DNA of 64,000 nucleotides from Raillietiella orientalis (Eukaryota). The position numbers were made by a program, and so were the translations under genes. Where the stretch lies: NCBI GenBank assembly GCA_036172245.1, contig JAYWIR010000060.1, positions 62,001 through 126,000 of the forward strand, read 5' to 3'. Under the pieces are notes generated by a model. It searched no databases, was not told the origin of the DNA, and saw nothing but the letters and a program-made list of their open reading frames with translations. This document shows, piece by piece, positions 4,981 to 41,173 of the stretch (its first letter is position 1; each line of letters starts with the position of its first letter).

Positions 4981-5195
4981 TTGCATGGGGGACTCCAGAC
5001 TCCCACCACTCGAGAGGGGGGATGCGTTCGTTTGGGAGCGCCGGGGCCAGTCACGAGATCTTCGCGGAGGATTCCCAGCAGCTCACCCCGGCTCACGAGT
5101 GGGGGCGACACTCGGGGAGGCAGCGTCCCTCAGATGGCCCGTGGTCCGGCCACCTGACGATGTCCCCTGAAGTGAATTTTCACGGGAGACCACGG
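4981..5195 (+). repeat. Diverged direct copy of ~1367-1580 (part of repeat A)
   Basis: Shared blocks ccactcgagaggggg, tcttcgcggaggattcccag, cacgagtggggNcgacactcggg and ggcagcgtc occur in the same order with many substitutions. Confidence 0.8.
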
Positions 5196-17800: not shown

Positions 17801-18243
17801 GGTCAGGGACACCCGAAATCAGAACGAGAAGCCCTTCCTAGGGGTCTTTTTCGTAAGATCGTTCTTGCGGGGATCATCAAGCGGATAGGTTCATCCATTC
17901 CTAACTTCAGTACGCCGTCATAGAATGAACAATGAGGTCCGTTGAAGACAAGTGAGCAGTGGTCACGGGTCGCGACGGGTCGGCGGTCGTGCGTGGCGTG
18001 TGCCTGCGTGACTCAGAGGTGTCTCTCTGCTTGCAGGCAACGGCTACATCACCGTCGAGACGCTCAAAGAAATCCTACACGAGCTAGACGACAAACTCGA
18101 CAACGACACTCTGAACAGTATCATCGAAGAAGTGGACACGGATGGGTCAGGGACTCTAGACTTCGATGGTAAGGCCATCACCGACCACCCTGGGCTCGTA
18201 ACTCGCCGCCCGTTCAGAATTCAAGGAAATGATGACAGGATAA
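8885..18243 (+). CDS. TpnC: Troponin C (arthropod type, 150 aa, 4 EF-hand motifs). Exons 8885-8887, 10536-10563, 12378-12521, 16920-17039, 18037-18168, 18218-18243
   Basis: All introns are GT..AG with matching phases. Product: [150 protein letters not shown]. The ATG-only first coding exon (caagATG|gtgagt) is typical of this family but is the least certain exon. Confidence 0.93.
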
Positions 18244-18314
18244 GTGGAGCGTCGCAGCAAGTGCAGTGGATACACCATTCCTAGTTGTCACGACTCAGTC
18301 AAGCTTTCTACTTA

Positions 18315-18320
18315 AATAAA
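18315..18320 (+). terminator. Polyadenylation signal of troponin C (second AATAAA at 18486-18491)
   Basis: AATAAA about 70 nt after the stop codon. Confidence 0.65.
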
Positions 18321-20914
18321 GTCATAAGTTCACATCTGCCAGAATTTCAGGTTTCAAGTAACCATCAGTCAAGCGCCTGATGGACTTGGAACAATCCCCT
18401 AGAAGAAGATTCGATTTCCGTTGTTTTCAGTTGCTTTTTTTAATGCATGGATCGAAGGATCATCAGCCTTTTCATCTTCTGAGAGAATAAAGCAAACATA
18501 ACTCGTAAAGCGGGGTGATGCAACCCTTTTTTTTTCTTTCTGGGATGGCCTCTCTCAACGAATGCGCCTCAACGTAACGTCCGCAACTCGATTTCTTCCA
18601 TTCTTTTTTTTTCTTTTTTTTTTGTTTTCTTCCATTCTTTTCACGTCACGGAAACTCAATCGTTCCGATTGGTACGCGCCTGCCACCTAGTAGCCGACTC
18701 AGAAACAACCGCGGCAACCTTCAGATCATCGCTGAGACCACACTTTATATAATTTCAAGTAATTATTCATTCTTTTGAAACGATCGCGTCACTGGGAGAC
18801 GACCTAAACGGGTGCTCGAAAGGATTCAACAGCCTCTGCTTTTGCATCATCATCAATTATCCGAGATAGCAAACTGCCGTTCACATACACTTTTCTGTAC
18901 GACCATTCGCGAATCCATAGAATACACTACGCAAAGTCCATTACACATGCCAAGAGGAAATGCACTGGAAGTAGCTCGAACTTGCGCTCTCATCACATTA
19001 AAAGTGATGGTGCATATGAGTAGACCGTGCACGCCCTCAGCGTTGCTAGGAGTCCGCCAAGACCCTCTCGAGGATCAATGCGGTCTTCCTATTTCCTCGA
19101 AATCCCCCCAAAGCCACCACTGAAATGTCTAATGGATCCACCGGAAAACCTCAATTGTCTCCATCGATTCAAGCCGAAACACCGATCATTTTTCAGCCTG
19201 ATCCAGTCAAATCAGTTTCAAAATTCCAGCTTGAACCCTTAGCAGAAGAGATCCAATGCACGCCATTGCAGCTCACACAGTGTCACCGTTAAACCCACGT
19301 GCTGACATGCGATAACACCGAGTTCATCTGACGGAAGAAACGACCTACTGAGCTCAGCAGAGTTCTCTCACATCGAAAAGTTGCTTCGAACGATGAGATT
19401 TCGTTCTCACTTCTGCTCACTCCACAATTCGCAACCCCGGTCCCACCAGCTAACGATAAGAGATCACCCACCGACGAGCAGCCATACTGACATCAGCGAT
19501 TCGCCCAAGCCGAAGATTTCGACCTAGCCAGCGAGATCTGCACTCCTTGCCCAGCAGTCTGGCATGCAGTCATCCGTCCCCAGATGTCCAGCTGCAGAAG
19601 ACATTCGCCTGCAAAGCGCTGCTGCGGTCTCCCGCCTTGGCGGTTCCGTCGCTACGAACGAAATTCGTCCCTCCCCGAAAGACTTCGTCCAGACCAGCCA
19701 GGTGCACTCACCCGTTGCACCGAATCCACCGCCAGAACCGGCACCATTCGGGGAACCAAAAGGCATGGCGCTCCCAGAAGCAAGAAGGTCCCGGAACGGG
19801 AAGTGCCATACCTTCAGAGAGCTCTGCAACGTGCCTTCTGTCTATTCCCACTCGCCGCGGACCCACGACGTTCTCAGATCATCCCCTCACACGTGACGTG
19901 CGTCCGACGAAGGGAACGCACCCAACGCACGTGCTCAGGACACGCAACGTGGCAATTGCCAGAAACCTCCTCCTCACAGGTGAAGCGAGAGAACCCAAAC
20001 CGGGAAAAAGGATGCCCTCAAATCAACCCATCTTCCATGCGTCCAAACGAATGGCAGCAGAGGAAGAGTTGAAAAAACAGTTGGACCACGGCATCACCCG
20101 CGCCTTCGAACAAACAACGACAGCGCCCTCGAAACGGGACGCCAACTCAGCAGAGGGAAAGTGCGGGCACAGCCGCCTGTCCGCGTTTGCGCCCACAGCG
20201 CTCGCGTGAATCCTCTCGGCCTAGCAGGCACCGAGGCGCCCGAATGCCCATTTCCTCTCACGGGAACTCGACACCCGCTGCAAGGGCGTGGTCCCCAGCA
20301 GAGTCCGCGAACCCAGCAGCTCTGTCCGGCGAAGCCGCGTCCTACGCGGACGAAGGCACGTGCCGCAAGAAGCGACCGCTTCCCTCCGCATTCCAGCCAC
20401 GCCTCCGCAAGAGATCGAGGCACTCGCGGCCTCCCAGAGTTGGCGTCGCTGGTACGAGTACCGTGGGAAGAGACGCCACAAACGCCCAAGACGATCTGCG
20501 GAATCCATTTCGACTCCGAAAAGCTTCTTCGAGCCAGGGCAGAAGAGGAGAGCTCATGCGCGCAGCCTCCAACCGGGAAAGTTCGTTCGACCCGCTGCGT
20601 TGCCCTTCACACCGCAGGCCACGTCCTGGAATTTCCGTACCGTCGTCAGAGCCCTCCAAGAAGGCCCTTCGGGAAAAAGGCGCTGCCTCGCACTGCGGCC
20701 GCAGTCGCATCTGTTGGCCGTCGCCCCACGCGCGTGCAGGAGGCTGCTTCACAGGAGACGACAAGCAGCCCGCACCCGCAAGAGCGATGCACCAAGTTCA
20801 GATAGGTCGCCGGAGCTCCTGGAGGTCATTCCGCCGCTGCGTCTGGAAAGCTGCTTGGCTGTGGAAGAACGGAATTTGCTACCCAGTTCGCCCCCATAAA
20901 AGAAGACTGCCCAT

Positions 20915-22062
20915 CTACAGAGCTCCTTTATTCTGCAGGGAAAACGTATCTTCCAAATTGACGGTGATGTACGCGTAGTAACACGCGCTTCGACCAAGCT
21001 CATCCCGAAGTTCAAATTTAACATAGAAGTCTCTGCTGGGCAAGGCAAAGAGCTTAGGAAGATACCCAGAGAATTGCTGCCTAAAGTTGTATCGTCCATT
21101 GCTGCAGGATCCCAATAGTCCGAACAGAGAATCGAGGACCTTGCACAAGTCGTCATAGTAGCAGCTTCCAATTCCAAAAGCGCAAGGGATAGTCAACCAC
21201 AGAAAACCCACGTATACTTCCAACGTCAGTTGTAGCTGAAAAAGGAAACGCGTGGTCGCATGCGGTGCCGTAGAGAGTGAGGCGCGCGCACCACTGCTGT
21301 GCATGCGCTCCGAAACACTTTAGAGAGAAGCAGCAGCAGTAAAAAAAATGAAGCTAACTCACCGAGAGGCTGCTGTTTACAGAAGCCTTCCTCCAAAGTG
21401 CCTCCACGTTCAATTCAAATGGTCCGGGGAAAACGATGGGATTCGTGAAGTTGGTATTGAAATCGAGAAGGTCGCTCGGCCACCAGGAGCAACTTTCAAA
21501 TCTTCCCCAACTTCCCTGAGAGAGGAGGACAAAAAAACTCGATGAAGCCGAGCCGTCGCGCAATCCCCACGCCGCAGCCACGACGACGGGCGTGACGTCA
21601 CGATCGACAGGTTCCACGTCCGGGCAGAGAAGCTCCCACCCGCCAGCAGGGAGCAGAGGGAAGTGTGCGCTTCCGCGCCTTCGGCCAGCAGCTGGAGGTC
21701 CGTCAGACAGTCCCACCGGGACAGAAGCTACAGCCACGCGACTGCATTGCCGCGAGCGCTCTCCAGACCGCCGCAGCGACACAGGAGCGCGACAGGCTCG
21801 TCCTCGCAAGGACCATCTCCATCCGGGTGCGTCGTTCACAGCAGGAGGGCACGGTGGTGGCGAAGGGAACGCGCGAGAGCGCGTGCCTCGCCGCCGGCGG
21901 ACGTCGCGAAGCCTCCATGTCCTCCGCGTCCGACTCGAGCCAACCGCTTACCTCTTTGTGGACAGGAAAACTCGCCGGATGGCTTGGGTGGTGACGTCTC
22001 GCCCCGACACCTTCCGTGGGACCAGTCACGATGGCCAGGGCCAAAAGAAGCTCACGGATCAT
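20915..22062 (-). CDS. GM2-activator-like / MD-2-related lipid-recognition (ML) domain secreted protein, copy L (194 aa). Exons 22062-21952, 21515-21363, 21235-20915
   Basis: Signal-peptide exon MIRELLLALAIVTGPTEG...; exon 2 ...FESC...NPIVFPG...; exon 3 LWLTIPCAFGIGSCYYDDLCKVLD matches the GM2AP motif (LWIKIPC..IGSC....CDVLD). GT-AG introns, all phase 0; 6 Cys. Confidence 0.85.
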
Positions 22063-23594
22063 TTTGAACACTGTGGGAGGTTACACTTTTGGAATTCCAG
22101 ATGCCGAGAGGCGAAGCCGAAGTCAGCAGTCCGAAAGATCGACAGCAAGTTTCAGCGTGGCATCCGTCGCTTTTAAAAGAAGTAACTCTAGTATCCGTGT
22201 CGTTATCGAATCCTTTATCTACCACGCGGGATGAAGGGCCGGGGAAGCAGCAGATGCTGGGTGCAGTGGAAGGAAGGTGTGCCCCTGGAATCAGTGGGAA
22301 CGCACAGAGGCCATGAGAACAAAAGGAAATGCACACGCAATCTCCAAGTTGCTGTTCTAAGCGGGTGAGAAGCCGCGTTGCCAGTACATGACTCCGAAGA
22401 TCGGGCATTGCCTCCGGCGAAGATCCTCGATCCGGCTACGCACGGTTGCGGGCTGCTGAGGTGTGTCTCTTTCAAGCAGCTACATCGGGACATGCTGGTT
22501 GTTGGTGGAGGAGTCTTGGGGTGGCAGGACTCCGTCCGCACCGTCACTCACATCTACGAAACTCTTATTCCCTCTGAGGAGGCTTCGGTTGGACCTGTGG
22601 GCTTCCAGAGCTCATAGCCATCCCGCGAGGGTGTGCCCTGCGGCTTGCTCTTTCTATCGGTCGTTCGCTCCGTGGAGTTGGGAGGCACATGCTGCCGATC
22701 GGGAATCAATTTCGATAGTCAGCATTCGTTCATGGCTGAAGCGCAAAAAGTCTCCGAATCCGAGGGTTATCTGCTTGTGTCTTTCTACTGTATCACGAGC
22801 GCTGCGAGGACAGAGATAGCTCATGAGTCCACAAAACCGCTCACTGGTGTCGTAGGCAAGTATGGCGCAGAGATGCTAGCAGTGCTGGAGCTCGTTCTTT
22901 TGAATGCCCAGAGGACTGATGAACCCAGATAACAGTGATCCGAAGTACTAAAAACGATGCGCAAAAACAATGCTTTTCCATAAGAGGAAGGTGCTTTCGA
23001 TAGCGTTCGGCTACTCCCACCCACTCGCAGTAGCAGGAGAAGCCCGATCTGCGAGTGATCCGAGACCGAGGTCGATATGTGGCCAATGTTGAGTGCAGGC
23101 GTCCACTTCCCAAGTCCCTGCAGGGACACGCGTGGTGCGAAGAGGCGACGTGTTTTCGAAAGGGCTGGCTGAAAGAATTTTGATGCGTTGGACTGCTCTC
23201 CAGGGGGAAATGTCCTCATCCTCTCTGTCGCAAAATCTCAGCTTTGCGTAGCGGCACTTCAGGGTACACTTCGTACCGTAAATGCTGGGTGGAGCACAAT
23301 CCGTTCAGATGCCTCTAGGGTCACCGCAGGCAGCGAACGCGAAGGTCCCTACAAGTCCTAGAGATAGCAGGGCAAGTGATACTCACCCCAGGTCTCACCT
23401 ATGGCGGTCGGCGGTCCCTTGGCGCAGAGGCATTTTCCGTGCGAAAGTTGAGCCGACTTTGTGCTACGACGACGCTGCTTGGGATCATCTGAGTCCCGGA
23501 ATTTCGGCGGTGGCCCGCAGTGACCCGTAAACTTTCTGTCATTTCGTCGCACTTCCTTAAGGAGAGGCGCGCCGTGTAAAACGCTCCAATGCAC

Positions 23595-23990
23595 ACATTA
23601 CAATAACATGAAAATCTTCCATCGTCAATACAAAATCTGCATCCACCACTATCCTCCTATCACACATCCTCAACATATACGTTCTATAACCCCCACCTAC
23701 CCATGTAATAATACCCAAGCATAATTCTGTACGCACCACTACATTTACTATTCCTATATATATTATAATTTCCCCTAATGATGCCAATCTTAAGGGACAT
23801 GACATATTTAAAAAACCAGAATCAACCTCACCAACCTACCACAACTTCACTTCGTTCCACCTCTCAAATACATTGATCGCCTCCCTAACGATTCAAACAT
23901 TAAACCACTAATAAAAAATAAACCAGATGATACACAACCACGAGCCACTACCATCAAAACACATCCAATCAATCCGAACCCCCTTTTATC
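23595..23990 (-). pseudogene. nad4: NUMT: fragment of mitochondrial NADH dehydrogenase subunit 4
   Basis: Abrupt strand-skewed composition (C/A-rich on +). Minus strand in the invertebrate mitochondrial code reads GCVLMVVARGCVSSGLFFISGLMFESLGSRSMYL...NMSCPLSLASLGEI, matching the ND4 motifs AHGxxSSGLF, ERxxSRS and NMxxPxSxNLxGE. The two halves are out of frame and the His is replaced by Arg. Confidence 0.88.
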
Positions 23991-26900
23991 GAAGCTGCTG
24001 CAAATTTGACTGCCAATGTTGTCAGCAGCGGTCCAGTCATCCATTCGAGGGGTCCCTGCTGGTCCGAGACCACAGCACGAGAGACGAACTCTCTGTCCTG
24101 CACGAAGCCTCCATTTTCTGACACAGACTCTAACCAATCCGGAAGTGCTGCGGAACCTCCAGGAGTCGAGTCACGTGCAGGGAATGGACTGCGAGATGGC
24201 CATTTCCGGAGCGGTCGGCCCGAGCCCTGCGGTAAAATGGAAACGAACTTCTCCAAGGACGTTCCGAGCGACGCGGCGCACGCATCGAACACGCAAATCA
24301 CGGGCGTGCCAACGTGCAGCGGCGTTTCTTTCCCTTCTGAAGGAAGCGCGCGTGTCCCTACCGACAAGGAGTCGCGAGAAGACAAAAGCAACTGTGCAGC
24401 AAGAAACGAAGACTGCGGCCGCAAATCCCATCCCCGAGCTGCGAAAGCAAAACGACCCCCCCCCCCGCCGTATCGGCAGCAGCACTGTCAGCCCAGGAGA
24501 AAGATGCTTTTGCATGGCTGCGCGTGCACTGAAGCAACACCAAAGCAACTGCTTCTTCGTATCCCGGGACAACGGCAGGCGAGTCGGTTGAAGGACGCAT
24601 GGCATTTCGGTGAAACTTGATCAGCCGAAAGCAATTGCCAGAAGTGGAAATGGGTTGGATAAAGTTCTTTGGCACGATGAGCCAAGCTGCGGATTTCTCG
24701 TGGCAACGGAGGCAAATTGTTCCATCCGTGGAAAGGCGGAAGCGCCACAAAGTAAGGGCGAAAGTGATGGGAAACGCTGCGGCACGTTGCAGCGGCATTT
24801 CCGGGTACGAAGTGCTTTCACGATGGGCGGCCCCTCCGTGTTGCGGAAGGAACGCACCCCGCGTGCACCATGCGTGCCCATCGCAGCAACTTTCTTTCCC
24901 CGTGTCAGGCGGAGCTGCTCGTCGAAAATGAAAGCGGTAGGAGACGAGGCATTGGGGTAGAGAACGGACGGCCCTGACGCCGGTCCGGTCCTCAGACTAC
25001 TCTTCCCGGACGGCGACTCTCCATTTCGGAGTGGTCTTCCCGAACAGCGCGGCCAACTCACTTCCCGAATTCCAGGCAGCGCTTCCTGCGCACCCGCTTT
25101 CCTGCCACCGACGTTGTACTTCTGCGACCGCGAGGGCTGCTCACACAACGTTCCGCTGCTTTTCCATCCTCCCTTCCAGCAGACTTGCGAGCTGCCGAAG
25201 AAAGTCGAACGCACTTCTGGCGCGTTAGACAAAAAGGAGGCACAGCGCTGTCGCGCTTTGCACGCTTTGTGCGCGCCCTCGCGAAGAAACGGTTGCCGCT
25301 TAGCCGTAATACCGAAAGGAAGGCTTCCGTGTGGACGAGACCACTGCAAAGCACTGCGCTCCATGCATTCCGAGCGGTTGCACAAGGAGACGTGGAGAAT
25401 GGAGCTGAGCGTAGCAGCGCCTCCGAAATTGCAGTGTCTGGCGCTGCAAAAGAAGCGCCACCCCACTTTGGTCTTCGCCCGCCGGGTGCGCATCCCTCCG
25501 ACGCTGGAAGACGCGGTCGCCGTCATTTCCTGCACTTCCTCCACGATTCGCTGAGTGCGCGTCGTCGTCCGCACGCATTTCGCTCGCGCGCGCAGCAAAG
25601 CTCGTCGCCCGCGCCGCACTGCACGCCGTCGCCGGAAGAGTGCTTCGTGCCCGTCGTGAATTCGCAGTTGGCCGCGCCAGCGATGGCACCGTTGTTGTGC
25701 TGCGAAAGGAAAGCCTTCTTCTGCGAGAGGACGTGCAAAGTTGGCGCGAAGGGAGAGCGGACGGCGTGGTCCTGCTGAACCTTGGCGCGTCTTCTCCAGG
25801 TTCGGGAAACGGGTAGGTCGCCCCAGAACTGCTATCCCTCGATGCGACGGGTGCGCGCCTCGCTAAACAGCCACGAGAGCGTAAGAGGAGATGACCGGGT
25901 CCACAGGGCGCATCCACGTTCCGCGTCCACGCTCGTGCGTCGAGCGACGCTGACGTCTGTGTCGACACTGACTGACCCACGCAAGTGCAAGCTCACCCGC
26001 GTACACTCTTCCGCACGACACCTTCGAAGCACGGCGAGCGCGGATCGCCGCCCACGGCGCTGTCCTCCGTACCACGTCTGCACGTCTTCCGGTGGAGCAG
26101 CGCGAGCGGAAGAAGGCAGCGGCCTTCCAGCTGCCCCACCCTCCGCATTCGCTGGTAAATGCACCGTGTGGGGCTGTTCTTTCGTCGTCCCATCTGCTGA
26201 CGGTCGCATCCAAATGCCACGGCGACCGTCAGCGGATGCTGCAATGCGTGAGGTCAGCAGCCTCCCTGCCTGGAGGGCGCTTCCTTTGGCAGGCGAAACC
26301 GTGCCAAAGTGAGAGGGAAGGTCGTCTTCGTCGAAGGCTACTCGCGAGCAGTGCGTGCCAACGACTACGAGTTTTCGCACGCGCGCTTCGGTCGCCCTCG
26401 AAGACGGAAGGAACGAAAGGGCAGCCGCGAAGGAAAGCAGCAAAAGCCGCCCGCGCAAAGGGGCCGAAATCGCTTTCGCCTGCTGGCAGCAAAAGACGCC
26501 TCCATCTTTTCCCGCACTTCCTGCCACCTAAGCAACGGGACGGAAGTCCGAGTGCTTCCTGGAGCTTCGGTTGCCCTCAGGCAACGGCGCGGTTGCTGTT
26601 CTCCCGCGTGCACGGGGTCACGGCCATTCGCAGAGGCGGTGCTCCCTGGCCCCCCTGCACGTGGACGCCACGTTTGACCTCCCTCACCCCCCGCCCCCGT
26701 CCTTGGCTCTTTGAAATGAGAATCGCGGAACGCACAGCATGGTCAGGATGGTTGGTCAGCGTGCTTCCGGTGTCAAGCGCGGTCGCCAGGACGAATCGTC
26801 CGACCTTATGATCGTATGCACGCCTTCTGACGAACACGAACACTCGACGGAAGTGAACACTCGGACGCGCGTCGTGTTGGCGCACTTTGAGCAAGCGTCG

Positions 26901-27116
26901 ACGTTGCTGCGCGCCGACGAAGCCCTGCGGCGCGGCCCGGAGTTTCGACGTTGCCGGGTTACGCCCGGGAAGGCCGTCTCCCCCGGCGAAAGCCCCCGTT
27001 TCCCAGTGTGCCCAAGTGTTGCCCCGCGTCGGGCGTGGTGGGTGGACGGGCAGGGGTGGTCGGAATGGGATGGTGAAATTGTACTGTAATCCGTTCGTGC
27101 CACGCTGCGTCTCTAA

Positions 27117-27636
<520 letters not shown>

Positions 27637-29171
27637 ACTGCATGGATGTTCATGCATGGATAGCAGTGTAGTGTTTAGGTTTTGGATGAAAGGTAAGATC
27701 ACTTCTCATGTGTTGAATGATAGACCCGTTCTCGTGACACATTTCATCATTTGTTGCAGTAGGAGTGTTTCTTTCGGTGGTGAATGATGTTGTTCCAGCG
27801 TGTGGTAACAAGACTCTAGATGATTTGGTGCAAAGGTCACGTCATACATTCAAGTGGATTATGCTGTTGCATCGCTTGGATATATGTAGTGTTTGCATTT
27901 TCCATTGTGCTTCAGGATACTGGCAAATGTACTTATGGAATGTTTCCTTTAGCAGGCCTTGGGATTTCCGGTGCTGTTGTGAAAACAGAAACCTGCAGTG
28001 CATTGTCAGGAGTTCTTTGATGGGATAGCGTTCATCAGATTAGAGTCCCCTACTTTTACCTTTTGTGACAATTGTGGTAGGAAAACCCGTGATGAGCTGT
28101 GTCAGAGTTTCACGTGCATTTCATTCTGCAATTGACTTGAATTCATGTTGGAAAAAGAGCTGACCTGGTGAAGACAAAGAGTGGAGTGAGGTTAGGGTTT
28201 TCTTCTGTTGCACATGCGTTTTGTGGAATTCTTTTTTCCTTCATCTGGTTGCCACTTTTGTGACTCCAGGCTTTGAGTGTGGAAAGGAATGTAGGAAGTC
28301 ACAACTGATTTGCAGTTGTGACTTTTGGTTTCTTGATGTACCGCCTTGTCAAGGTTGTTTGTGGGTTGAAGTTGGTTGCAAACGCAAAGCAAGTCGACCC
28401 TATTGAGCTTTGGCTTCACAGCTGAAACTGGTATGGAATGCTTCCGTGCTGCTGATAAGGAGGGTGTGACAGCATCCGGAAGAGTATTCTTGTTTTCCTA
28501 AGCAGGCAATCCTTGTGCCAGTGCATGCTTGGTGGACACAGATGTGAACAGCTGAGTTGTTGAACTTACATGGGAAATTCAGTGAAACTCATGTGAGATC
28601 ACGTTGGAAAGAATTTGCTGTATATTGTTCTTGAAAGGCTTTTTGAAACTTGTTGGGCAACTGAGGTATATGTTCGTGTATTCTTGTTTTGCAAAGAGGC
28701 AGAAAGGAAGCATTGGAGAAGTACTCAGTCCATTAGTGCAGGGAATTATGCCATGAAAAGTGTACAAAGCAATTTGTTGTCGTGGAGGGAGAAATTCAAA
28801 TCTTACTCTGTATGGTCATCAGTAATCATTTGTGCTTTCTGTGTTCTTAGTCCCAAAGCATGTTTTGTTATCACAGTGTCTTCACGAGGTTTTCACATAA
28901 TCATAGCTTTTATGGGTACTAATTTTCCTTTTGATCATATTTTAGAATGGGATTCGTGTTGCATGCAGGCATCATGCAAAGATGGAAATGTTGTTACTTT
29001 TCTCATGAATGAATTGGGATGTGGCTTCTTTGTTGTTTCCATTTTGAGTGCTGTTGATGTAATTATACAGGAAGTTCGAAACTGGACCAGCTGCTCATAT
29101 ACAGTGTGCTACCTGTGTTTCCCTAATCTATGAAGGAAAGTGTGTGACCGCCTGGTTCCAGCATTGTTTGA

Positions 29172-29177
29172 AATAAA
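29172..29177 (+). terminator. Candidate polyadenylation signal ending a long AT-rich NUDT2 3' UTR (mirror copy 34272-34277 on -)
   Basis: First AATAAA I found downstream of the NUDT2 stop, about 1.5 kb away. Confidence 0.4.
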
Positions 29178-31580
29178 GGATGGGAAGCACAAAGTATTTG
29201 TACACTGTCAACTGCTGCAGCGTAAGATGCAAAGAACATATTCAGAACCTCATAAAATACTCTAAGAACATGTTTTCTTTAACATTGGGATAATTTGAGA
29301 TGTCTCAGTACTTTCGTGGCATCTTTGCGAGTAACGTTGCCTTTGATAGTGGTTTTGTGCTCCTGGCTTTTTATCTGGGTGTACTGAAAGCTGATTAAGG
29401 ATTCTTGGGTTGTTAAGGTGCTATGTACCCTATTGTGACCAATCTTTTGGGATCATTGCTTGCAGTGCTAATCCCAGTGATTAAATCGCAAAACATGCAT
29501 ACTACTGGTGACTGTTGCATTTGGAAGGCAAAGTGGATCAGTTTCAGGTAACCAAATTCGAAAGAGCCCTTGGCAGAAAATGTTCCCACTGTGTGCCCCC
29601 ACGTATTTCAAGCAAGGGGCGTGGTTCGCATGCAGTGGGTTTCGGGGAGAGAAATGCGAAAAGATGGGTTCCGAACGCAGACGCAGCGCAATGTCCCGTA
29701 AATCATATTTCCTGGATCTCTTTCGACCTTAATCTTCTGTTTGAACGCCCTTAACCGATGCCTTTTCGGCCGATGTCATCGCAAAGGTGGCTCGACGGCC
29801 GTTTCTGATGGAAAGGCACCGCTGATGCCTACCTTGGCAGTGGACGGAGATCAGCGCGCTTGGGTTCTCTGGCTTGAACGTCAAGCCGTTTCCTGATTCT
29901 TGTTTCGCCGAGTTGAAGTTCGATGGTCTTCACCAAGTGCAACTCTTCTGCCCCTTCCAGAGGTTGGTTGTGCCCGCAGCTTCGCGAGCTGTTCTTTGCC
30001 AACCACGCGTCTACCCGTGCCGCGGCTCCATCATTCTGCGAACGTGGGGTGTGGCGCCTTCCGACTGCGGAAGGCTCACAACAGCGCGTTGTGCAGCAAT
30101 CGGACAGCCAACCGCCCCCTCAGCTGCGCTCGTGGACAGAGTCCAACCGTTGCCAGCAAACCACGTTTGGGAGGACGCGTTGAGGCACGAAGGGAGCTCC
30201 TTCCGACGCGAGATGTGGCATAACAACGCAGTTGCTTGCGGTTTTTCATGTTTCTTCGTATCCAATATGGACTGGTGCTTCTTTCGCTGGCGCTACCTTG
30301 TGACCCTTGGATCGCATCTCAAACGATGGAAGATGGCAAAGAGAGACACTCGTCGCCTTCGAGGACTGAAGTTCTCTCGTGCATCAAGTCGAAAATCAGG
30401 CTGCGATTTTTCGGAACTTTGTTTGGCAAAGTGATTCCTCTTCTGGGGCCGAATGCTACGGCGTTTTTCTCCCCTCACGATATGCACCGAGCACCAAAAT
30501 AACAAAGATGTACTCAGCAGAAACCCTCTGGCTGTATTTTGCATTTTTGATTCACGTGGGAGCCGTGGTCGCTGACGTCTTTCTAGCCAATGCTTGGTTA
30601 CCTCGTAGTGCTTCAACGTAAGCTGTCGGAACCTGAAGAAGGCGCCAAGTGATCGGAGACCCTTTGATGAACTGAGAGAAACGCCTGTGAAGGCCTGCCG
30701 AGTCGTGATTGTTCTCGAGGTGTTAAGGATGTGCTGAGCTCTGGTTCGAAAATGGCGCTGCTGCGATGGCACTGTTCGATTCTTCAGGCGTGCCAAGGGG
30801 GGCCGGAGCAGGAAAGAGTTCCTTTTCATTTCCATCGAGTACACTTCTACAGTTGTTCCATCAGGATTGCTTTTTCGATAGATGCTTCCCCGAATAAAGT
30901 GCAGTGTTTCGGCTTGTTCTGCATCGACGTTTGGAAGATTAGTCAGCAAAATGAGGTTCTCGAGTGGCATCACGCGTCCAGCGCCTAATCATGCCGGAAA
31001 GCGGAACGCTGCTCCACGCTGCAGTCCAGAAAGAAACAAAGGTCACTTTTATCAAAGGACACAGTGCGACTATGATGTCTGCCTTTGATGGTCTGACAAA
31101 AATACTCGAGCTCACTATCTACAAGAAGCAGTTGATGTGGCAGACGCTGTACGAAGATGTACAATAGTTGAGTTTACTCGAATTTGCGGTGCTTGGTGAT
31201 CTATTAACACAGAATAATAGTTCATGCCAAGGAAATGTTGTAGCCCTGGGCCAAGGTGTTTGACGGGTACCGTATAACACGTACGTGGTACCACCGTGCC
31301 ATTGCAGTAGTACATGCCGTAGATGTGGAACTATATGAAAATGACAGAGCAGGTTTTATCGTACAGGGCTGTATCACGCACCTATTAGGGGCTATGAAGG
31401 TGTGAACGAGGGGAGATGCTTCTGCAAGTAGGTCTAATGGAAGAAAAGGCGAATTGATCAGCTTTACAGTGACTATTCAATGGATAGTGAGATCATGTTC
31501 TTGCTCGTGGAACTTTTCTTAATTAATAATTCCAATCCAATTCTTTCATCAGGTTTGTTATATTTCTGTAAGTGCCACTC

Positions 31581-31604
31581 AAAAAAAAAAAAAAAAAAAA
31601 AAAA
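31581..31604 (+). repeat. Poly(A) tract (A24)
   Basis: 24 consecutive A in the palindrome spacer. Confidence 0.9.
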
Positions 31605-32532
31605 GGGAAAAAAATCGAGATGTTTTGCTCTGACAAAGTAAGAACTCTTGTTGCAATTTCCATTTGTTCAGCTGACACGAAAGTGACCTTTATCAAGTTT
31701 CTGCAACAGTCCGTTCTTCGAGCGTTTTCTGTGAATGGAAAACGGACAGCAAGTCAAGGAAGGAGCGAATCAGATGTTGGATCAGATTTAAATACGTCAT
31801 CCGGAGAATGTGCCACACCCTGAATTTTGCCTCAGAATGCAAGAACTGTGTGTATTCCTCTCGTCAACTTTGATGTTCACGGTCACTTTTAGATTTCCCG
31901 GTTTCTTCGTCCGTTGTGTGTGACTCGATGGAACTCAATCCATTCAATTCCATCCAACTCCATCCAAATTCTGACCCAAAGAAGGAAAAATGCTGGAATT
32001 TTGTGAAGCCTTCAAGAAATTTCAAGAGGCAATGCAGGCTCATTGCTGCTCATTGCTATCTCTGCGAAACGGGAAGAACTGTTTGGTACCATTCGCTTCC
32101 GTGCTGAAATTCTTTCTTTAAGGGAAAGAAAGCACTGAATTTATTGCATCTTAAAACATCCAACAGCTTCATGTAAGTACCTTCGTTTTAGCCAAATAAA
32201 AGCAATAAAAAGTCGTCGAAACGAAGCACAGAAAGAACATTTGCGTGATCTCCATGAGGAAAATGTAAACGCTCAGGTTCACTTCAAAAAAGTCAAAGTG
32301 TATTAGCAAGGCTGCTGTTCGGAACGTGTGCACCACCAGTAACCACAGTTGCAAGGTGAAGATACTCCAGAGGCAGAGTGTTCTGGCAGATGCACGCAAT
32401 CTCGTGGTCACATACCTGAGAGCCAACGCATCTTTGATATCTGATATCTCGATGCGAGCTCGTGCGAATGACGTCCGAAACGAAAGCATCGCCTTTCTTG
32501 CGTGGGCTCGCAAGTTTCGATTTGCCGTCCGT

Positions 32533-32657
32533 GAAGGTGGACGTCCCTCCTGAAGCGAGGTCATCGGGTACGGCGAAGATGGACGTCCCTCCTGAAGCGA
32601 GGTCATCGGGTACGGCGAAGATGGACGTCCCTCCTGAAGCGAGGTCATCGGGTACGG
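32533..32657. repeat. Minisatellite, 42-bp unit x3
   Basis: gaagatggacgtccctcctgaagcgaggtcatcgggtacggc at 32533, 32575 and 32617; units abut directly with no spacers. Confidence 0.95.
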
Positions 32658-35600
32658 GAATCCGATTTTCGAACGCCAATTTCGTGCGGGAAGCTCTGCG
32701 CGTGGGTTCGTTTTTCCGCTGCGGCTGACGCTGACCCGAAGAGGTCACTGCTGGCTGCGTGGGGCTCCTCGGTCTCGCGCTTTGTGCAGTTTCGAACTCG
32801 GCCGAATGGGCGCCTCGCGTGCCATTTTTGTGCCGCGCCCATTGTTGGCGGCGAAGAACTGCGGCCGCCGGCGCTTCCTGCGCCCCACGGATCGTCTCAG
32901 GAGCGCGTGCTCCTCCCAAGTGGGAGCCACCTGGATTCCCGATCGAGCCATTCCCGTCGGGTCGCGGGAGTTCGTTGGCGAAGCGCTGAGGTCGTCGGAA
33001 AGGTGCCTTCTGCAGCCAGGCGCTGCTTGGGTCCACCGACGACCCTCCGCAGAGGCTGCGGAAGACCTGCCAGCCAGGCGAAACACGCACACTGGGCAAA
33101 TGCAACTCGGTCGTCTATTATGAGATGAAGGGAGGAGCTGCCCGAAATCTCATGCTAAAAAACATGAAAACCGCGCATCCCTGCGGCATGCATCCGAATC
33201 ATCCGAGGAAGGCAGCAGCACGGCAACATAAGAAAACGAACTTATCGAACACGAGATGAGAGGGAGGCTGGAGCAATTAAAGAACCACTGTGGGTGCGAA
33301 GAGCCCCTTGTGAAGCATTCATGCAGGGCCGTTTCGAATGTGGGTGCATCTTCATTTCCTCGTTTTGCCTCAGCTTCCATCAGTTCAACAAACATGCGGA
33401 TGGCATCGTATCCCACCACCGCTGACCGAGCGTGTGGGCGTGAAGTCCGAAATGGGCCAATATGGGGGCCCTCACTCTTAGCAGCGGTCGAAGGGAAGTG
33501 AGGAAAAGAACAGGAGGTTGCCAAATGCGAGCGTCATATAACAAAGCGGGTTTGGTACGATAGTGTACATATTCTGACATTGGAAACACCAGGAAAGCAA
33601 AGACGCGTCACCGAATTGTCCACACAGTCACGGTCTCCTGGAAAATCGTGAAAGAAAAGCCATTCGTCCTGTGGCAACGATGGACTAAATTCATGAAATC
33701 CACACATCCCCCAGACCATGAAATGACATACCAGCCTGCTCTCCTACATAAGCGTGAAATCCGTTGCATCTCAGATACATTTCCCTGTGCGTAGACATTG
33801 CAACACACAGCAACAGTAGAAGCTCCACCACGCAACCGGAGGTTAGCCAAAGTATAAGAAACGATTCGAAAAAAGCACCAACACTAATGGACAAACATTT
33901 TCTTGGTCATTAATGCTACTCTCGAAGGGCGCTGTAAACGATTAGAAATGTACAAATATTTTTCATTTTCTATAATCTTATTCAATACGAAGAAACATCC
34001 GTAAGCAACTGCGTTCTTATGCCACAAGCACCTTAACAACCCAAGAATCCTTAATCAGCTTTCAGTACACCCAGATAAAAAGCCAGGAGCACAAAACCAC
34101 TATCAAAGGCAACGTTACTCGAAAAGATGCCACGAAAGTACTGAGACATCTCAAATTATCCCAATGTTAAAGAAAACATGTTCTTAGAGTATTTTATGAG
34201 GTTCTGAATATGTTCTTTGCATCTTACGCTGCAGCAGTTGACAGTGTACAAATACTTTGTGCTTCCCATCCTTTATTTCAAACAATGCTGGAACCAGGCG
34301 GTCACACACTTTCCTTCATAGATTAGGGAAACACAGGTAGCACACTGTATATGAGCAGCTGGTCCAGTTTCGAACTTCCTGTATAATTACATCAACAGCA
34401 CTCAAAATGGAAACAACAAAGAAGCCACATCCCAATTCATTCATGAGAAAAGTAACAACATTTCCATCTTTGCATGATGCCTGCATGCAACACGAATCCC
34501 ATTCTAAAATATGATCAAAAGGAAAATTAGTACCCATAAAAGCTATGATTATGTGAAAACCTCGTGAAGACACTGTGATAACAAAACATGCTTTGGGACT
34601 AAGAACACAGAAAGCACAAATGATTACTGATGACCATACAGAGTAAGATTTGAATTTCTCCCTCCACGACAACAAATTGCTTTGTACACTTTTCATGGCA
34701 TAATTCCCTGCACTAATGGACTGAGTACTTCTCCAATGCTTCCTTTCTGCCTCTTTGCAAAACAAGAATACACGAACATATACCTCAGTTGCCCAACAAG
34801 TTTCAAAAAGCCTTTCAAGAACAATATACAGCAAATTCTTTCCAACGTGATCTCACATGAGTTTCACTGAATTTCCCATGTAAGTTCAACAACTCAGCTG
34901 TTCACATCTGTGTCCACCAAGCATGCACTGGCACAAGGATTGCCTGCTTAGGAAAACAAGAATACTCTTCCGGATGCTGTCACACCCTCCTTATCAGCAG
35001 CACGGAAGCATTCCATACCAGTTTCAGCTGTGAAGCCAAAGCTCAATAGGGTCGACTTGCTTTGCGTTTGCAACCAACTTCAACCCACAAACAACCTTGA
35101 CAAGGCGGTACATCAAGAAACCAAAAGTCACAACTGCAAATCAGTTGTGACTTCCTACATTCCTTTCCACACTCAAAGCCTGGAGTCACAAAAGTGGCAA
35201 CCAGATGAAAGAAAAAAGAATTCCACAAAACGCATGTGCAACAGAAGAAAACCCTAACCTCACTCCACTCTTTGTCTTCACCAGGTCAGCTCTTTTTCCA
35301 ACATGAATTCAAGTCAATTGCAGAATGAAATGCACGTGAAACTCTGACACAGCTCATCACGGGTTTTCCTACCACAATTGTCACAAAAGGTAAAAGTAGG
35401 GGACTCTAATCTGATGAACGCTATCCCATCAAAGAACTCCTGACAATGCACTGCAGGTTTCTGTTTTCACAACAGCACCGGAAATCCCAAGGCCTGCTAA
35501 AGGAAACATTCCATAAGTACATTTGCCAGTATCCTGAAGCACAATGGAAAATGCAAACACTACATATATCCAAGCGATGCAACAGCATAATCCACTTGAA

Positions 35601-35812
35601 TGTATGACGTGACCTTTGCACCAAATCATCTAGAGTCTTGTTACCACACGCTGGAACAACATCATTCACCACCGAAAGAAACACTCCTACTGCAACAAAT
35701 GATGAAATGTGTCACGAGAACGGGTCTATCATTCAACACATGAGAAGTGATCTTACCTTTCATCCAAAACCTAAACACTACACTGCTATCCATGCATGAA
35801 CATCCATGCAGT

Positions 35813-36332
<520 letters not shown>

Positions 36333-39300
36333 TTAGAGACGCAGCGTGGCACGAACGGATTACAGTACAATTTCACCATCCCATTCCGACCACCCCTGCC
36401 CGTCCACCCACCACGCCCGACGCGGGGCAACACTTGGGCACACTGGGAAACGGGGGCTTTCGCCGGGGGAGACGGCCTTCCCGGGCGTAACCCGGCAACG
36501 TCGAAACTCCGGGCCGCGCCGCAGGGCTTCGTCGGCGCGCAGCAACGTCGACGCTTGCTCAAAGTGCGCCAACACGACGCGCGTCCGAGTGTTCACTTCC
36601 GTCGAGTGTTCGTGTTCGTCAGAAGGCGTGCATACGATCATAAGGTCGGACGATTCGTCCTGGCGACCGCGCTTGACACCGGAAGCACGCTGACCAACCA
36701 TCCTGACCATGCTGTGCGTTCCGCGATTCTCATTTCAAAGAGCCAAGGAAGGGGGCGGGGGGTGAGGGAGGTCAAACGTGGCGTCCACGTGCAGGGGGGC
36801 CAGGGAGCACCGCCTCTGCGAATGGCCGTGACCCCGTGCACGCGGGAGAACAGCAACCGCGCCGTTGCCTGAGGGCAACCGAAGCTCCAGGAAGCACTCG
36901 GACTTCCGTCCCGTTGCTTAGGTGGCAGGAAGTGCGGGAAAAGATGGAGGCGTCTTTTGCTGCCAGCAGGCGAAAGCGATTTCGGCCCCTTTGCGCGGGC
37001 GGCTTTTGCTGCTTTCCTTCGCGGCTGCCCTTTCGTTCCTTCCGTCTTCGAGGGCGACCGAAGCGCGCGTGCGAAAACTCGTAGTCGTTGGCACGCACTG
37101 CTCGCGAGTAGCCTTCGACGAAGACGACCTTCCCTCTCACTTTGGCACGGTTTCGCCTGCCAAAGGAAGCGCCCTCCAGGCAGGGAGGCTGCTGACCTCA
37201 CGCATTGCAGCATCCGCTGACGGTCGCCGTGGCATTTGGATGCGACCGTCAGCAGATGGGACGACGAAAGAACAGCCCCACACGGTGCATTTACCAGCGA
37301 ATGCGGAGGGTGGGGCAGCTGGAAGGCCGCTGCCTTCTTCCGCTCGCGCTGCTCCACCGGAAGACGTGCAGACGTGGTACGGAGGACAGCGCCGTGGGCG
37401 GCGATCCGCGCTCGCCGTGCTTCGAAGGTGTCGTGCGGAAGAGTGTACGCGGGTGAGCTTGCACTTGCGTGGGTCAGTCAGTGTCGACACAGACGTCAGC
37501 GTCGCTCGACGCACGAGCGTGGACGCGGAACGTGGATGCGCCCTGTGGACCCGGTCATCTCCTCGTACGCTCTCGTGGCTGTTTAGCGAGGCGCGCACCC
37601 GTCGCATCGAGGGATAGCAGTTCTGGGGCGACCTACCCGTTTCCCGAACCTGGAGAAGACGCGCCAAGGTTCAGCAGGACCACGCCGTCCGCTCTCCCTT
37701 CGCGCCAACTTTGCACGTCCTCTCGCAGAAGAAGGCTTTCCTTTCGCAGCACAACAACGGTGCCATCGCTGGCGCGGCCAACTGCGAATTCACGACGGGC
37801 ACGAAGCACTCTTCCGGCGACGGCGTGCAGTGCGGCGCGGGCGACGAGCTTTGCTGCGCGCGCGAGCGAAATGCGTGCGGACGACGACGCGCACTCAGCG
37901 AATCGTGGAGGAAGTGCAGGAAATGACGGCGACCGCGTCTTCCAGCGTCGGAGGGATGCGCACCCGGCGGGCGAAGACCAAAGTGGGGTGGCGCTTCTTT
38001 TGCAGCGCCAGACACTGCAATTTCGGAGGCGCTGCTACGCTCAGCTCCATTCTCCACGTCTCCTTGTGCAACCGCTCGGAATGCATGGAGCGCAGTGCTT
38101 TGCAGTGGTCTCGTCCACACGGAAGCCCTCCTTTCGGTATTACGGCTAAGCGGCAACCGTTTCTTCGCGAGGGCGCGCACAAAGCGTGCAAAGCGCGACA
38201 GCGCTGTGCCTCCTTTTTGTCTAACGCGCCAGAAGTGCGTTCGACTTTCTTCGGCAGCTCGCAAGTCTGCTGGAAGGGCGGATGGAAAAGCAGCGGAACG
38301 TTGTGTGAGCAGCCCTCGCGGTCGCAGAAGTACAACGTCGGTGGCAGGAAAGCGGGTGCGCAGGAAGCGCTGCCTGGAATTCGGGAAGTGAGTTGGCCGC
38401 GCTGTTCGGGAAGACCACTCCGAAATGGAGAGTCGCCGTCCGGGAAGAGTAGGCTGAGGACCGGACCGGCGTCAGGGCCGTCCGTTCTCTACCCCAATGC
38501 CTCGTCTCCTACCGCTTTCATTTTCGACGAGCAGCTCCGCCTGACACGGGGAAAGAAAGTTGCTGCGATGGGCACGCATGGTGCACGCGGGGTGCGTTCC
38601 TTCCGCAACACGGAGGGGCCGCCCATCGTGAAAGCACTTCGTACCCGGAAATGCCGCTGCAACGTGCCGCAGCGTTTCCCATCACTTTCGCCCTTACTTT
38701 GTGGCGCTTCCGCCTTTCCACGGATGGAACAATTTGCCTCCGTTGCCACGAGAAATCCGCAGCTTGGCTCATCGTGCCAAAGAACTTTATCCAACCCATT
38801 TCCACTTCTGGCAATTGCTTTCGGCTGATCAAGTTTCACCGAAATGCCATGCGTCCTTCAACCGACTCGCCTGCCGTTGTCCCGGGATACGAAGAAGCAG
38901 TTGCTTTGGTGTTGCTTCAGTGCACGCGCAGCCATGCAAAAGCATCTTTCTCCTGGGCTGACAGTGCTGCTGCCGATACGGCGGGGGGGGGGCGTTTTGC
39001 TTTCGCAGCTCGGGGATGGGATTTGCGGCCGCAGTCTTCGTTTCTTGCTGCACAGTTGCTTTTGTCTTCTCGCGACTCCTTGTCGGTAGGGACACGCGCG
39101 CTTCCTACAGAAGGGAAAGAAACGCCGCTGCACGTTGGCACGCCCGTGATTTGCGTGTTCGATGCGTGCGCCGCGTCGCTCGGAACGTCCTTGGAGAAGT
39201 TCGTTTCCATTTTACCGCAGGGCTCGGGCCGACCGCTCCGGAAATGGCCATCTCGCAGTCCAGTCCCTGCACGTGACTCGACTCCTGGAGGTTCCGCAGC

Positions 39301-40028
39301 ACTTCCGGATTGGTTAGAGTCTGTGTCAGAAAATGGAGGCTTCGTGCAGGACAGAGAGTTCGTCTCTCGTGCTGTGGTCTCGGACCAGCAGGGACCCCTC
39401 GAATGGATGACTGGACGGCTGCTGAGAACATTGGCGGTGACATTTGCAGCAGCACAATCCTATCCTTCGATCAAAGCTGTAGGGCACTCTCGCAGGATGG
39501 CTATAAGCTCTGAAAGAGGGAGGAAGAGTTTCGCAGATGTGAGTGACGGTGCGGACAGAGTCCTGCCACCCCAAGACTCCTCCACCAACAACCAGCATGT
39601 CCCGATGTAGCTGCTTGAAAGAGACACACCTCAGCAGCCCGCAACCGTGCGTAGCCGGATCGTGGATCATCGCCGGTGGCAATGCCCGATCTTCGGAGTC
39701 ATGTACTGGCAACGCGGCTTCTCACCCGCTTAGAACAGCAACTTGGAGATTGCGTGTGCATTTCCTTTTGTTCTCATGGCCTCAGGTGCGTTCCCACTGA
39801 TTTCAGGGACAGACCCTCCTTCCTCAGCACCCAGCATGTGCTGCTTCCCCGGCCCTTCATTCCGAGTGGTAGATAAAGGATTCGATAACGACACGGATAC
39901 TAGAGTTACTTCTTTTAAAAGCGACGGACGCCACGCTTCGACTTGCTGTCGACCTTTTAGACGGCTGACTTCGGCTTCGCCTCTCAGCATCTCGAATTGC
40001 AAGGGCGTTACCTTCAACGGTGCTCAAG

Positions 40029-41173
40029 ATGATCCGTGAGCTTCTTTTGGCCCTGGCCATCGTGACTGGTCCCACGGAAGGTGTCGGGGCGAGACGTCAC
40101 CACCCAAGCCATCCGGCGAGTTTTCCTGTCCACAAAGAGGTAAGCGGTTGGCTCGAGTCGGACGCGGAGGACATGGAGGCTTCGCGACGTCCGCCGGCGG
40201 CGAGGCACGCGCTCTCGCGCGTTCCCTTCGCCACCACCGTGCCCTCCTGCTGTGAACGACGCACCCGGATGGAGATGGTCCTTGCGAGGACGAGCCTGTC
40301 GCGCTCCTGTGTCGCTGCGGCGGTCTGGAGAGCGCTCGCGGCAATGCAGTCGCGTGGCTGTAGCTTCTGTCCCGGTGGGACTGTCTGACGGACCTCCAGC
40401 TGCTGGCCGAAGGCGCGGAAGCGCACACTTCCCTCTGCTCCCTGCTGGCGGGTGGGAGCTTCTCTGCCCGGACGTGGAACCTGTCGATCGTGACGTCACG
40501 CCCGTCGTCGTGGCTGCGGCGTGGGGATTGCGCGACGGCTCGGCTTCATCGAGTTTTTTTGTCCTCCTCTCTCAGGGAAGTTTGGGAAGATTTGAAAGTT
40601 GCCCCTGGTTCACGGGCGACCTTCTCCATTTCAATACCACCTTCACAAATCCCATCGTTTTCCCCGGACGATTTGAATTGAACTTGGAGGGATATTGGAA
40701 GGAGATTCTCCTAAGCGACCGCGTCTGGGTGAGTTGGTTTTATTTCCTTTGCTGCTGCTGCGTCTCTCGAAAGTCTTTCGAAGCGCATGCACAGCAGTGG
40801 TGCGTGCGCCTCGCTCTCGATGACACCATACGCTACCTCGTGTTTCCCTTTCTAGCTGGATCTTAAGGTGGAAGTAGATGTAAACGGTTTCTGGCTGACG
40901 ATGCCTTGCATTTTTGGAGTGGGAAGCTGCCGCTACGACAACTTGTGCAAGGTCCTCGATTCTCTGTTCGGACTGCTCGGATCATGCAAGGGATCACATT
41001 CCTTTAATCGCCAATGGTCCTTTTATCTTTTCCAATTCTTCCCATTGTCCACCGTCAACTTCTATGTTCAATTTAACATTAATGCTCTGAATTCTCGATA
41101 TGAGTGTTATTACGCGTACATCACCGTCAGCTTCAAAGATTTCTTTTCCCTGCAGAATAAAGGAGCTCTGTAG
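40029..41173 (+). CDS. GM2-activator-like / ML-domain secreted protein, copy R (193 aa). Exons 40029-40139, 40576-40728, 40856-41173
   Basis: Same exon structure as copy L. Exon 2 GSLGRFESCPWFTGDLLHFNTTFTNPIVFPGRFELNLEGYWKEILLSDRVW; exon 3 LDLKVEVDVNGFWLTMPCIFGVGSCRYDNLCKVLD...; intact frame, splice sites and 6 Cys. Confidence 0.85.

Follow-up and report, generated by a model that had tools for sequence, protein, structure and literature searches.

A sharply bounded diverged segment in a GM2-activator-like gene pair on near-identical palindrome arms of Raillietiella orientalis

In conotoxins and snake-venom PLA2, a conserved signal exon or intron is combined with a hypervariable mature region on a conserved cysteine framework, and replacement changes far exceed silent and intronic ones. 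A gene pair with some of these traits, encoding proteins similar to the GM2 activator protein (GM2AP), is located in a 64,000-nucleotide stretch of DNA from Raillietiella orientalis (GenBank assembly GCA_036172245.1, contig JAYWIR010000060.1, positions 62,001 to 126,000 of the forward strand), which is referred to as the window. Besides GM2AP, the ML-domain family (PF02221) includes NPC2, MD-2 and Der p 2. The two genes, L and R, lie on opposite arms of a palindrome. As in families of the conotoxin and PLA2 type, the signal exon and the adjoining intron are alike (here identical), the mature region is variable and the cysteine framework is kept; unlike in those families, silent and intronic sites are equally diverged. 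The initial annotation of the window had proposed the pair as a candidate for an undescribed system under positive selection. This is not supported as stated: on the best reading, the L/R locus is a new example, in a new family, of a known phenomenon, an island of divergence in duplicates that undergo gene conversion. Present evidence does not establish positive selection, nor does it reveal a new kind of system. The explanation that we favour, with a probability of roughly 55%, is that patchy gene conversion between the arms has spared a diverged segment of old or imported origin, leaving two functional paralogues.

In the available part of a study of gene-converted duplicates, the 'peak of divergence' at exon 5 of the opsin genes is read as selection restricting conversion (PMC3924837). 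The L/R locus resembles the opsin exon 5 and RHCE/RHD peaks, as far as that text describes them (Teshima and Innan model; PMC3924837), in that near-identical flanking and intronic sequence surrounds a diverged functional segment. It differs from them in that divergence reaches approximately 25% instead of a few sites and the borders are abrupt, not sloping; furthermore, the peak here includes an intron, a second peak covers the 5' untranslated region (5'UTR), and selection has not been demonstrated. The palindromes of the primate Y and X chromosomes, in the available portions of the corresponding reports (PMC8600007, PMC3403216), share with the present one inverted arms of more than 10 kb, a unique spacer, an identity of more than 99.7% and mirrored gene pairs. 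Whereas their gene pairs are kept identical, one of the two pairs found here is strongly diverged and the other, a NUDT2-like pair, is identical.

The diverged block and the palindrome arms around it

Gene models were obtained by translation and inspection of splice sites. Both genes are oriented away from the palindrome spacer, and L and R alike have GT..AG borders on both introns, open frames and all six cysteines. The N-terminal hydrophobic leader probably represents a signal peptide. The positions of the gene parts and of the segments that are distinguished in the comparison of L and R are as follows.

20915..22062, minus strand: L copy of the GM2-activator-like ML-domain gene, 194 amino acids (aa), three exons
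22062-21952, minus strand: exon 1 of L, predicted signal/pro region, 37 codons
21951-21516, minus strand: intron 1 of L, 436 nt
21515-21363, minus strand: exon 2 of L, 51 codons
21362-21236, minus strand: intron 2 of L, 127 nt
21235-20915, minus strand: exon 3 of L, 106 codons plus stop
40029..41173, plus strand: R copy of the same gene, 193 aa, exons 40029-40139, 40576-40728 and 40856-41173
40140-40575 and 40729-40855, plus strand: introns 1 and 2 of R
20945-21508 in L, minus strand, and ~40583-41143 in R: diverged block, 144 of 564 nt differ (25.5%)
21509-22062 in L, minus strand, and 40029-40582 in R: identical tract, 0 of 554 nt differ
22063-22575 in L, minus strand, and 39515-40028 in R: upstream region, 38 differences
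19265-20944: 3' flank of the L copy within the arm (partner in R 41144-42824; arm end at ~19265-19282)

The gene-bearing arm segment contains 190 differing columns in total, and these are distributed very unevenly. The diverged block begins at the 8th base of exon 2, runs through intron 2 and stops within exon 3, 28 nt short of the stop codon; 28 of its differences fall in exon 2 and 24 in the 127 nt of intron 2, while exon 3 contributes 89 mismatches and a 3-nt gap. The adjacent identical tract comprises the ATG, the coding part of exon 1 and intron 1, together with the opening 7 nt of exon 2. A run of 554 nt without a single difference between segments that are 20–25% diverged is far beyond chance. 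On the other side of the block, the 3' flank (19283-20913) deviates at only 4 of its 1631 nt; with the arm end included, the number of differences rises to 8. Among the 38 differences of the upstream region, 20 occur in the first 100 nt, the presumed 5'UTR, 11 in 22226-22306 and 7 farther out. The stretch 22163-22225 is free of differences between L and R and contains, approximately 110 nt upstream of the ATG, the motif TTTTAAAA, which by its sequence is possibly a TATA box. The block borders are abrupt: the base immediately 5' of the ATG differs, and the final 28 coding nt are identical. A localised diverged segment (144/564) is thus flanked by long tracts that are identical or nearly so (0/554 and 4/1631).

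These counts bear out the numerical description given by the initial annotation. On recounting, exon 1 and intron 1 showed 0 differences, exon 2 had exactly the claimed 28 differences among its 153 nt (21 codons with a replacement and one with silent change only), and exon 3 had 42 replacement and 12 silent-only codons. The mature region is identical at 93 of 157 aligned positions, with one additional 1-codon insertion or deletion (indel), in agreement with the stated identity of about 59%. The conservation of the six cysteines, the frames and the splice sites in both copies, and the near identity of the 3' flanks (4/1631), were confirmed as well. The accompanying statement that everything else is homogenised holds for exon 1, intron 1 and the 3' flank; it does not hold for the 5'UTR (20/100), the 38 upstream sites, intron 2 (24/127) and the large indels of the arms.

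An AATAAA hexamer is present at 20927-20932 on the minus strand of L and is mirrored in R. It falls among the final codons (..Q N K..) and is 9 nt upstream of the stop codon; if it serves as a poly(A) signal, both copies would have a very short 3'UTR.

The arms were located by BLAST of the left half of the window against the reverse complement of the right half, and the outer pair by whole-window self-comparison. The palindrome has the following parts.

23994-29426 in L, paired with 39453-34024 in R: inner arms, 99.69% identity over 5433 columns (14 mismatches, 3 gap columns; BLAST)
19265-22575 in L, paired with 42824-39515 in R: gene-bearing arms, 94.46% identity over 3323 columns (BLAST)
1297-3509 in L, paired with 46298-44085 in R: outer arms, 99.2–99.3% identity (self-comparison)
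29427-34023: unique spacer, 4.6 kb
34024-42824: whole R arm, consisting of the inner part (34024-39453), a non-matching piece of 61 nt (39454-39514) and the gene-bearing part (39515-42824)
22576-23993: L-only segment, ~1.4 kb versus 61 nt in R
3510-19264 in L (15.7 kb) and 42825-44084 in R (1.26 kb): regions between the gene-bearing and outer arms
27163-27636, plus strand, and mirror 35813-36286, minus strand: NUDT2-like NUDIX exon in both inner arms (Pfam PF00293, E 1.3e-11)

A repeat finder had reported 100% identity over 4966 nt; this value is due to rounding, as the inner arms contain the 14 mismatches and 3 gap columns listed above. Outside the diverged patches, the background divergence between the arms amounts to approximately 0.15–0.3%. 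Inverted arms, a unique spacer and an identity of more than 99%, as expected for a palindrome with arm-to-arm conversion, are all present, the exceptions being the block, the 5'UTR and those indels that are confined to one arm. The arms are nearly identical despite indels of 1.4 kb and of 15.7 versus 1.26 kb, suggesting a homogenised palindrome and not a brand new one. The NUDIX exon, whose nearest relative among solved structures is human NUDT2/Ap4A hydrolase (E 9.2e-22), is free of all 14 inner-arm mismatches. This second gene pair is therefore identical between the arms and serves as an internal control for arm homogenisation.

Within the L-only segment 22576-23993, the first 50–70 nt are still similar to the 61-nt piece of R. 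A stretch of about 400 nt in this insertion (23585-23990), missing from the R arm, is markedly poor in G (A 37%, C 32%, T 25%, G 6%). The spacer contains three copies of a 42-nt unit (32533-32657, 98% matches) and a long A run at 31581-31606.

Family membership of the encoded proteins

The assignment to the ML-domain family was not apparent from standard searches. None of four single-exon translations matched any Pfam family at E≤10, and a word-based homologue search with exon 3 yielded three candidates, none of them at E≤0.01. A profile made from two exon 3 sequences was used in an exhaustive HMMER search of 1.84 billion representative sequences. At E≤1e-3, 26 proteins were obtained, the best with an E of 9.6e-14 over 45 residues and the only one below 1e-10; a close relative of the gene pair was thus not found among the approximately 1.8 billion representatives. 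PF02221 was detected at E≤0.01 in 22 of the 26 proteins, at or above the Pfam cut-off of 22.7 bits in 18 and below it in 4; of the others, one carried other families only and three carried none. When the profile was compared with solved structures, four distinct GM2AP sequences were matched at E 2.6e-8 to 8.9e-7, and the other three of the seven rows listed had E≥0.34. The ML-domain, GM2-activator-like assignment proposed by the initial annotation is supported by these matches.

Sixteen aligned sequences (14 homologues together with L and R) have W13, P17, C18, G23, S24, C25, C31 and C44 of exon 3 invariant. A profile built from the 14 homologues matched the spliced proteins with 69.0 bits for L (residues 62-181) and 65.5 bits for R (62-180). 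This match crosses the junction of exons 2 and 3, and the NPIVFPG of exon 2 is aligned with DPIVIPG of the family; the exon 3 part of the match is circular, and that of exon 2 does not depend on the way in which the homologues were obtained. Modelling of exon 3 alone by AlphaFold2 (106 aa, 16 sequences) resulted in a mean predicted local distance difference test score (pLDDT) of 69.7 and a predicted template-modelling score (pTM) of 0.59. The top PDB matches of this partial model in Foldseek were GM2AP, at weak values (E 0.075–0.58, query TM-score 0.45–0.54) and with none at E≤0.001. Protein language-model look-alikes of exon 3 were arthropod clusters (score 0.92), one of which has PF02221 in 25% of its members; this is taken as a lead only. 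These look-alikes, those of a 516-aa open frame elsewhere in the window and the metazoan-like NUDT2 match hint at an arthropod-like animal, likewise as a lead; a coccidian protist, suspected at first because of the style of the sequence, was discarded. A search for relatives in metagenome contigs gave 130 pattern matches, none of which was confirmed, and 0 matches to an exact 33-mer.

Based on the profile search, the PDB matches and the partial fold, the conclusion that the L and R products are very divergent GM2-activator-like ML-domain proteins is supported. At the profile level they are similar to GM2AP chains (E 2.6e-8) and to proteins with PF02221, they share the W..PC..GSC.Y..C core and the terminal cysteine, and 6 of the 8 cysteines of GM2AP are at aligned positions. 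They also comprise about 160 aa after an N-terminal hydrophobic leader, and the best, albeit weak, structural matches of the partial model are to GM2AP. Unlike GM2AP, the two proteins are devoid of the cysteine-rich 'CP...PC.CP' loop, so that three disulfides are presumed, with a pairing predicted from the alignment, compared to four in GM2AP. A further difference is that the L and R exons are too diverged for a match of single exons to Pfam; lipid binding by L and R would be predicted from the family. In Varroa, NPC2/GM2AP-domain genes are reported without positive selection in the available part of the corresponding study (PMC6773775), which argues that fast evolution is not general for the family in arthropods.

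Substitution rates, constraint and competing explanations

The initial annotation regarded positive selection as the cause of the divergence and named a properly corrected dN/dS (omega) of 1 or below as one result that would speak against it. For the domain as a whole, this is essentially what was obtained. By the method of Nei and Gojobori (NG86), omega was 0.70 for exon 3 and 0.94 for exons 2 and 3 together, with 0.259 of silent sites (pS) and 0.247 of replacement sites (pN) differing. A pairwise Goldman-Yang (GY94) likelihood, coded for this analysis, gave 0.93 for exon 3 and 1.30 for both exons; the latter was not significantly different from 1 (likelihood-ratio test statistic (LRT) 0.9–1.1, p ~0.3). 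Exon 2 alone was above 1: omega was 3.8 by NG86 (2 silent differences in 31.5 sites, 26 replacement differences in 121.5 sites) and 5.2–5.6 by GY94 (LRT against omega=1 6.5–7.5, p 0.006–0.011). The divergence of intron 2 (0.189) and of the 5'UTR (0.20) was close to that of the coding sites, and pN was not different from that of intron 2 (Fisher p 0.18) or of the pooled silent, intron 2 and 5'UTR sites (p 0.28). In simulations, 117 random substitutions were expected to cause 73 amino-acid differences (5–95% range 67–80), compared to 63 observed. The silent, intronic and replacement sites of the block are alike diverged (~20–30%), which indicates that the difference between L and R stems from age or ancestry and not from a burst of amino-acid substitution. 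Positive selection as the cause of the divergence is not supported in the form proposed.

Along the gene, pS and pN co-vary in sliding windows of 20 codons. Residues 38-77 have a pS of 0–0.08 and a pN of 0.13–0.14, while residues 88-107 and 128-157 have a pS of 0.45–0.56 and a pN of 0.26–0.43. Silent changes in codons with identical amino acids sit in neighbourhoods that are richer in replacements (0.41–0.44 versus 0.29–0.32, one-sided permutation p 0.02–0.05). At the 3' end of exon 2 (residues 68-87), 1 silent difference stands against 17 replacement differences. In a pairwise comparison of models, M2a was significantly preferred over M1a (LRT 15.3) and assigned an omega of ~0 to 46% of codons and of ~3.9 to the other 54%. 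A model with two ages and omega=1 throughout (39% of codons with t ~0, 61% with t ~2) reached a log-likelihood (lnL) of -1001.09 as compared to -1001.32 for M2a, with two fewer parameters; when omega was freed in this model it was estimated at 1.37 (lnL -1000.58). Compensated frameshifts as a cause of the amino-acid differences were rejected, since gapped alignments reduced the mismatches just from 28 to 22–24 in exon 2 and from 89 to 69–78 in exon 3, at a cost of 2–21 gap columns.

Neutral decay of one copy into a pseudogene is ruled out by simulation. When 117 random substitutions were introduced in 20,000 simulations, the frame stayed open in 1.4% and all six cysteines were retained in 1.3%, and both were retained in only 0.01%. 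Judged from the sequence, both copies have clearly been kept functional. As frames, six cysteines and splice sites are kept, an omega near 1 does not reflect decay; it is the outcome of a strongly constrained scaffold mixed with freely or adaptively changing positions.

The placement of the changes was assessed heuristically on the partial exon 3 model (mean pLDDT 69.7). The predicted strands alternate conserved hydrophobic with variable polar positions, and on the three long strands of exon 3 changes affect 10 of 16 positions on the polar face and 4 of 14 on the hydrophobic face. Throughout the mature region, L and R differ at 15 of 61 positions that are hydrophobic in both copies and at 34 of 81 that are polar in both, and 14 more positions switch class. 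The segment LCKVLDSLFGLLGSC of the predicted rim helix and the last strand, CYYAYITV, are the same in L and R. Predicted N-glycosylation sequons are NFT and NSS in L and NTT in R, and the computed isoelectric points are 4.87 and 6.11, respectively. In terms of the model, this pattern is as expected if exposed surface and loops evolve fastest, and it speaks against diversification focused on the pocket. Selection on the lipid pocket, as envisaged by the initial annotation, is disfavoured accordingly by replacements that lean to the polar strand faces and away from the hydrophobic faces presumed to line the cup.

The layout of the locus, the family to which the proteins belong, the mosaic of identical and diverged stretches and the constraint acting on L and R alike are observed. 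The course of events that we favour would be as follows. Arm-to-arm gene conversion would keep the palindrome arms 99.7–99.9% alike, and would have homogenised the 3' flank, the core promoter, the part encoding the signal peptide and intron 1. Two segments of greater age would have escaped it, namely the 5'UTR and the block of 564 nt encoding the mature domain. Having diverged this far, the block would probably resist conversion in two ways: heteroduplexes would be rejected at high mismatch density, and chimeric proteins arising by conversion would probably be selected against. Heteroduplex rejection would halt every conversion tract at one and the same border, and the peak would be abrupt and high for this reason. 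In the block, the cysteine scaffold, the rim helix and the hydrophobic strand faces would have been conserved, while the loops, the polar faces of the strands, the sequons for N-glycosylation and the net charge would have evolved at close to the neutral rate, with a possible acceleration in exon 2. The outcome would be two isoforms of a small, presumably secreted protein, predicted to form a lipid-binding beta-cup with three disulfides; they would have a common signal peptide and core promoter but different exposed surfaces, and possibly different preferences for ligands or partners. Ongoing conversion, an old and not an imported origin of the block, and everything said about function are what we infer from these observations.

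Several points weigh against this explanation. Omega is elevated in exon 2 (3.8–5.6, p 0.006–0.011), and silent divergence in exon 2 (2/31.5) is significantly below that of exon 3 (24.3/70; Fisher p 0.003). Exon 2 may therefore have been converted more recently and then have undergone some adaptive replacement, but its omega is based on 2 silent differences. One end of the identical tract coincides exactly with the ATG and the other lies at the 7th nt of exon 2, a better fit to borders shaped by selection than to random tract ends. Moreover, a single sequence cannot prove ongoing conversion, as a young palindrome with an import from a third paralogue looks alike, and the assembly was taken as given.

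Such an import would have occurred in a young palindrome with identical copies, one of which then acquired the 5'UTR and the exon 2-to-3 patches by ectopic conversion from a third member of the family. The low background divergence of the arms (just 0.15–0.3%) and the abrupt block borders would be explained in this way, as would divergence that ends near the gene ends, as if homology to the donor covered the gene only, and a block composed in turn of sub-segments with higher and lower divergence. However, the tract would have to be discontinuous and skip exactly the part from the ATG to intron 1; a third paralogue was sought in the 64-kb window by tblastn, which returned the two loci alone (next best match E 0.28), and the large arm-specific indels disfavour a very young palindrome. 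We consider this scenario unlikely. Recurrent diversifying selection on the ligand-binding pocket within continuously homogenised arms is improbable. It would account for the omega of exon 2 (p ~0.01), the preference for M2a with its 54% of codons at omega ~3.9, block borders that match the part encoding the mature domain, and a scaffold that is conserved though about 40% of residues differ. Yet intron 2 (24/127) and the 5'UTR (20/100) are as diverged as the coding sites, the overall omega of 0.94–1.30 is not different from 1, the neutral model with two ages does just as well, silent divergence rises and falls with replacement divergence, and, by the same heuristic on a model with a pLDDT of 69.7, changes are biased off the presumed pocket lining (10/16 on polar versus 4/14 on hydrophobic faces).

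A different role for selection would be a two-cassette recognition module, in which conversion locks the promoter core, the signal peptide and intron 1, while selection holds two ML specificities apart and drives replacement in exon 2 (omega ~4–5) on exposed surfaces and loops. We regard this version as doubtful. If true, the pair would diversify contact with a partner or a microbial ligand and not the lipid pocket, and would represent a fast-evolving and hitherto undescribed lineage of GM2AP-like proteins in an arthropod-like animal. Finally, the arms might represent a single locus, as its two haplotypes or as a chimeric join, so that the 'paralogues' would be highly divergent alleles. Long near-identical arms do resemble collapsed or misjoined haplotypes, but a unique spacer of 4.6 kb is present, each arm carries different large insertions, and an allelic divergence of 25% over 564 nt within identical surroundings would be extraordinary. 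The 14 inner-arm mismatches are likewise unlike fold-back read artefacts, which are ruled out by the non-identical arms and the spacer. An assembly artefact is therefore very improbable.

Provided that the structure is real, patchy conversion around a diverged segment would have produced an unusually clean natural example of conversion and divergence partitioning a duplicated gene. Its borders are sharp to the base, two diverged patches enclose a signal exon and intron that are perfectly homogenised, and the same palindrome carries an identical NUDT2-like pair as a control. The locus could be used to determine, in an invertebrate, where conversion tracts end and how strong the heterology barrier is, and it points to a very divergent GM2AP-like lineage that is missed by standard Pfam scanning of exons.

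Other features of the window

Scans of the window for Rfam families and tRNAs gave 0 matches each, and a Pfam scan of its 87 long open reading frames matched EF-hand and NUDIX alone. The EF-hand exon (~12380-12544; Pfam PF13499, E 8.3e-7) is located in the 15.7-kb segment of L. The same L-only segment contains 131 nt (4998-5127) that are 86% identical to the pieces 1406-1536 and 46055-46185 of the outer arms, and which may be a small dispersed repeat. An open frame of 516 aa at 53831-55381 on the plus strand is of normal complexity and lies in a stretch of lower GC content. It matched no Pfam family, and a word search returned 0 of 8000 scored candidates at E≤0.001; its protein language-model look-alikes are clusters of arthropod hypothetical proteins, with a score of 0.95.

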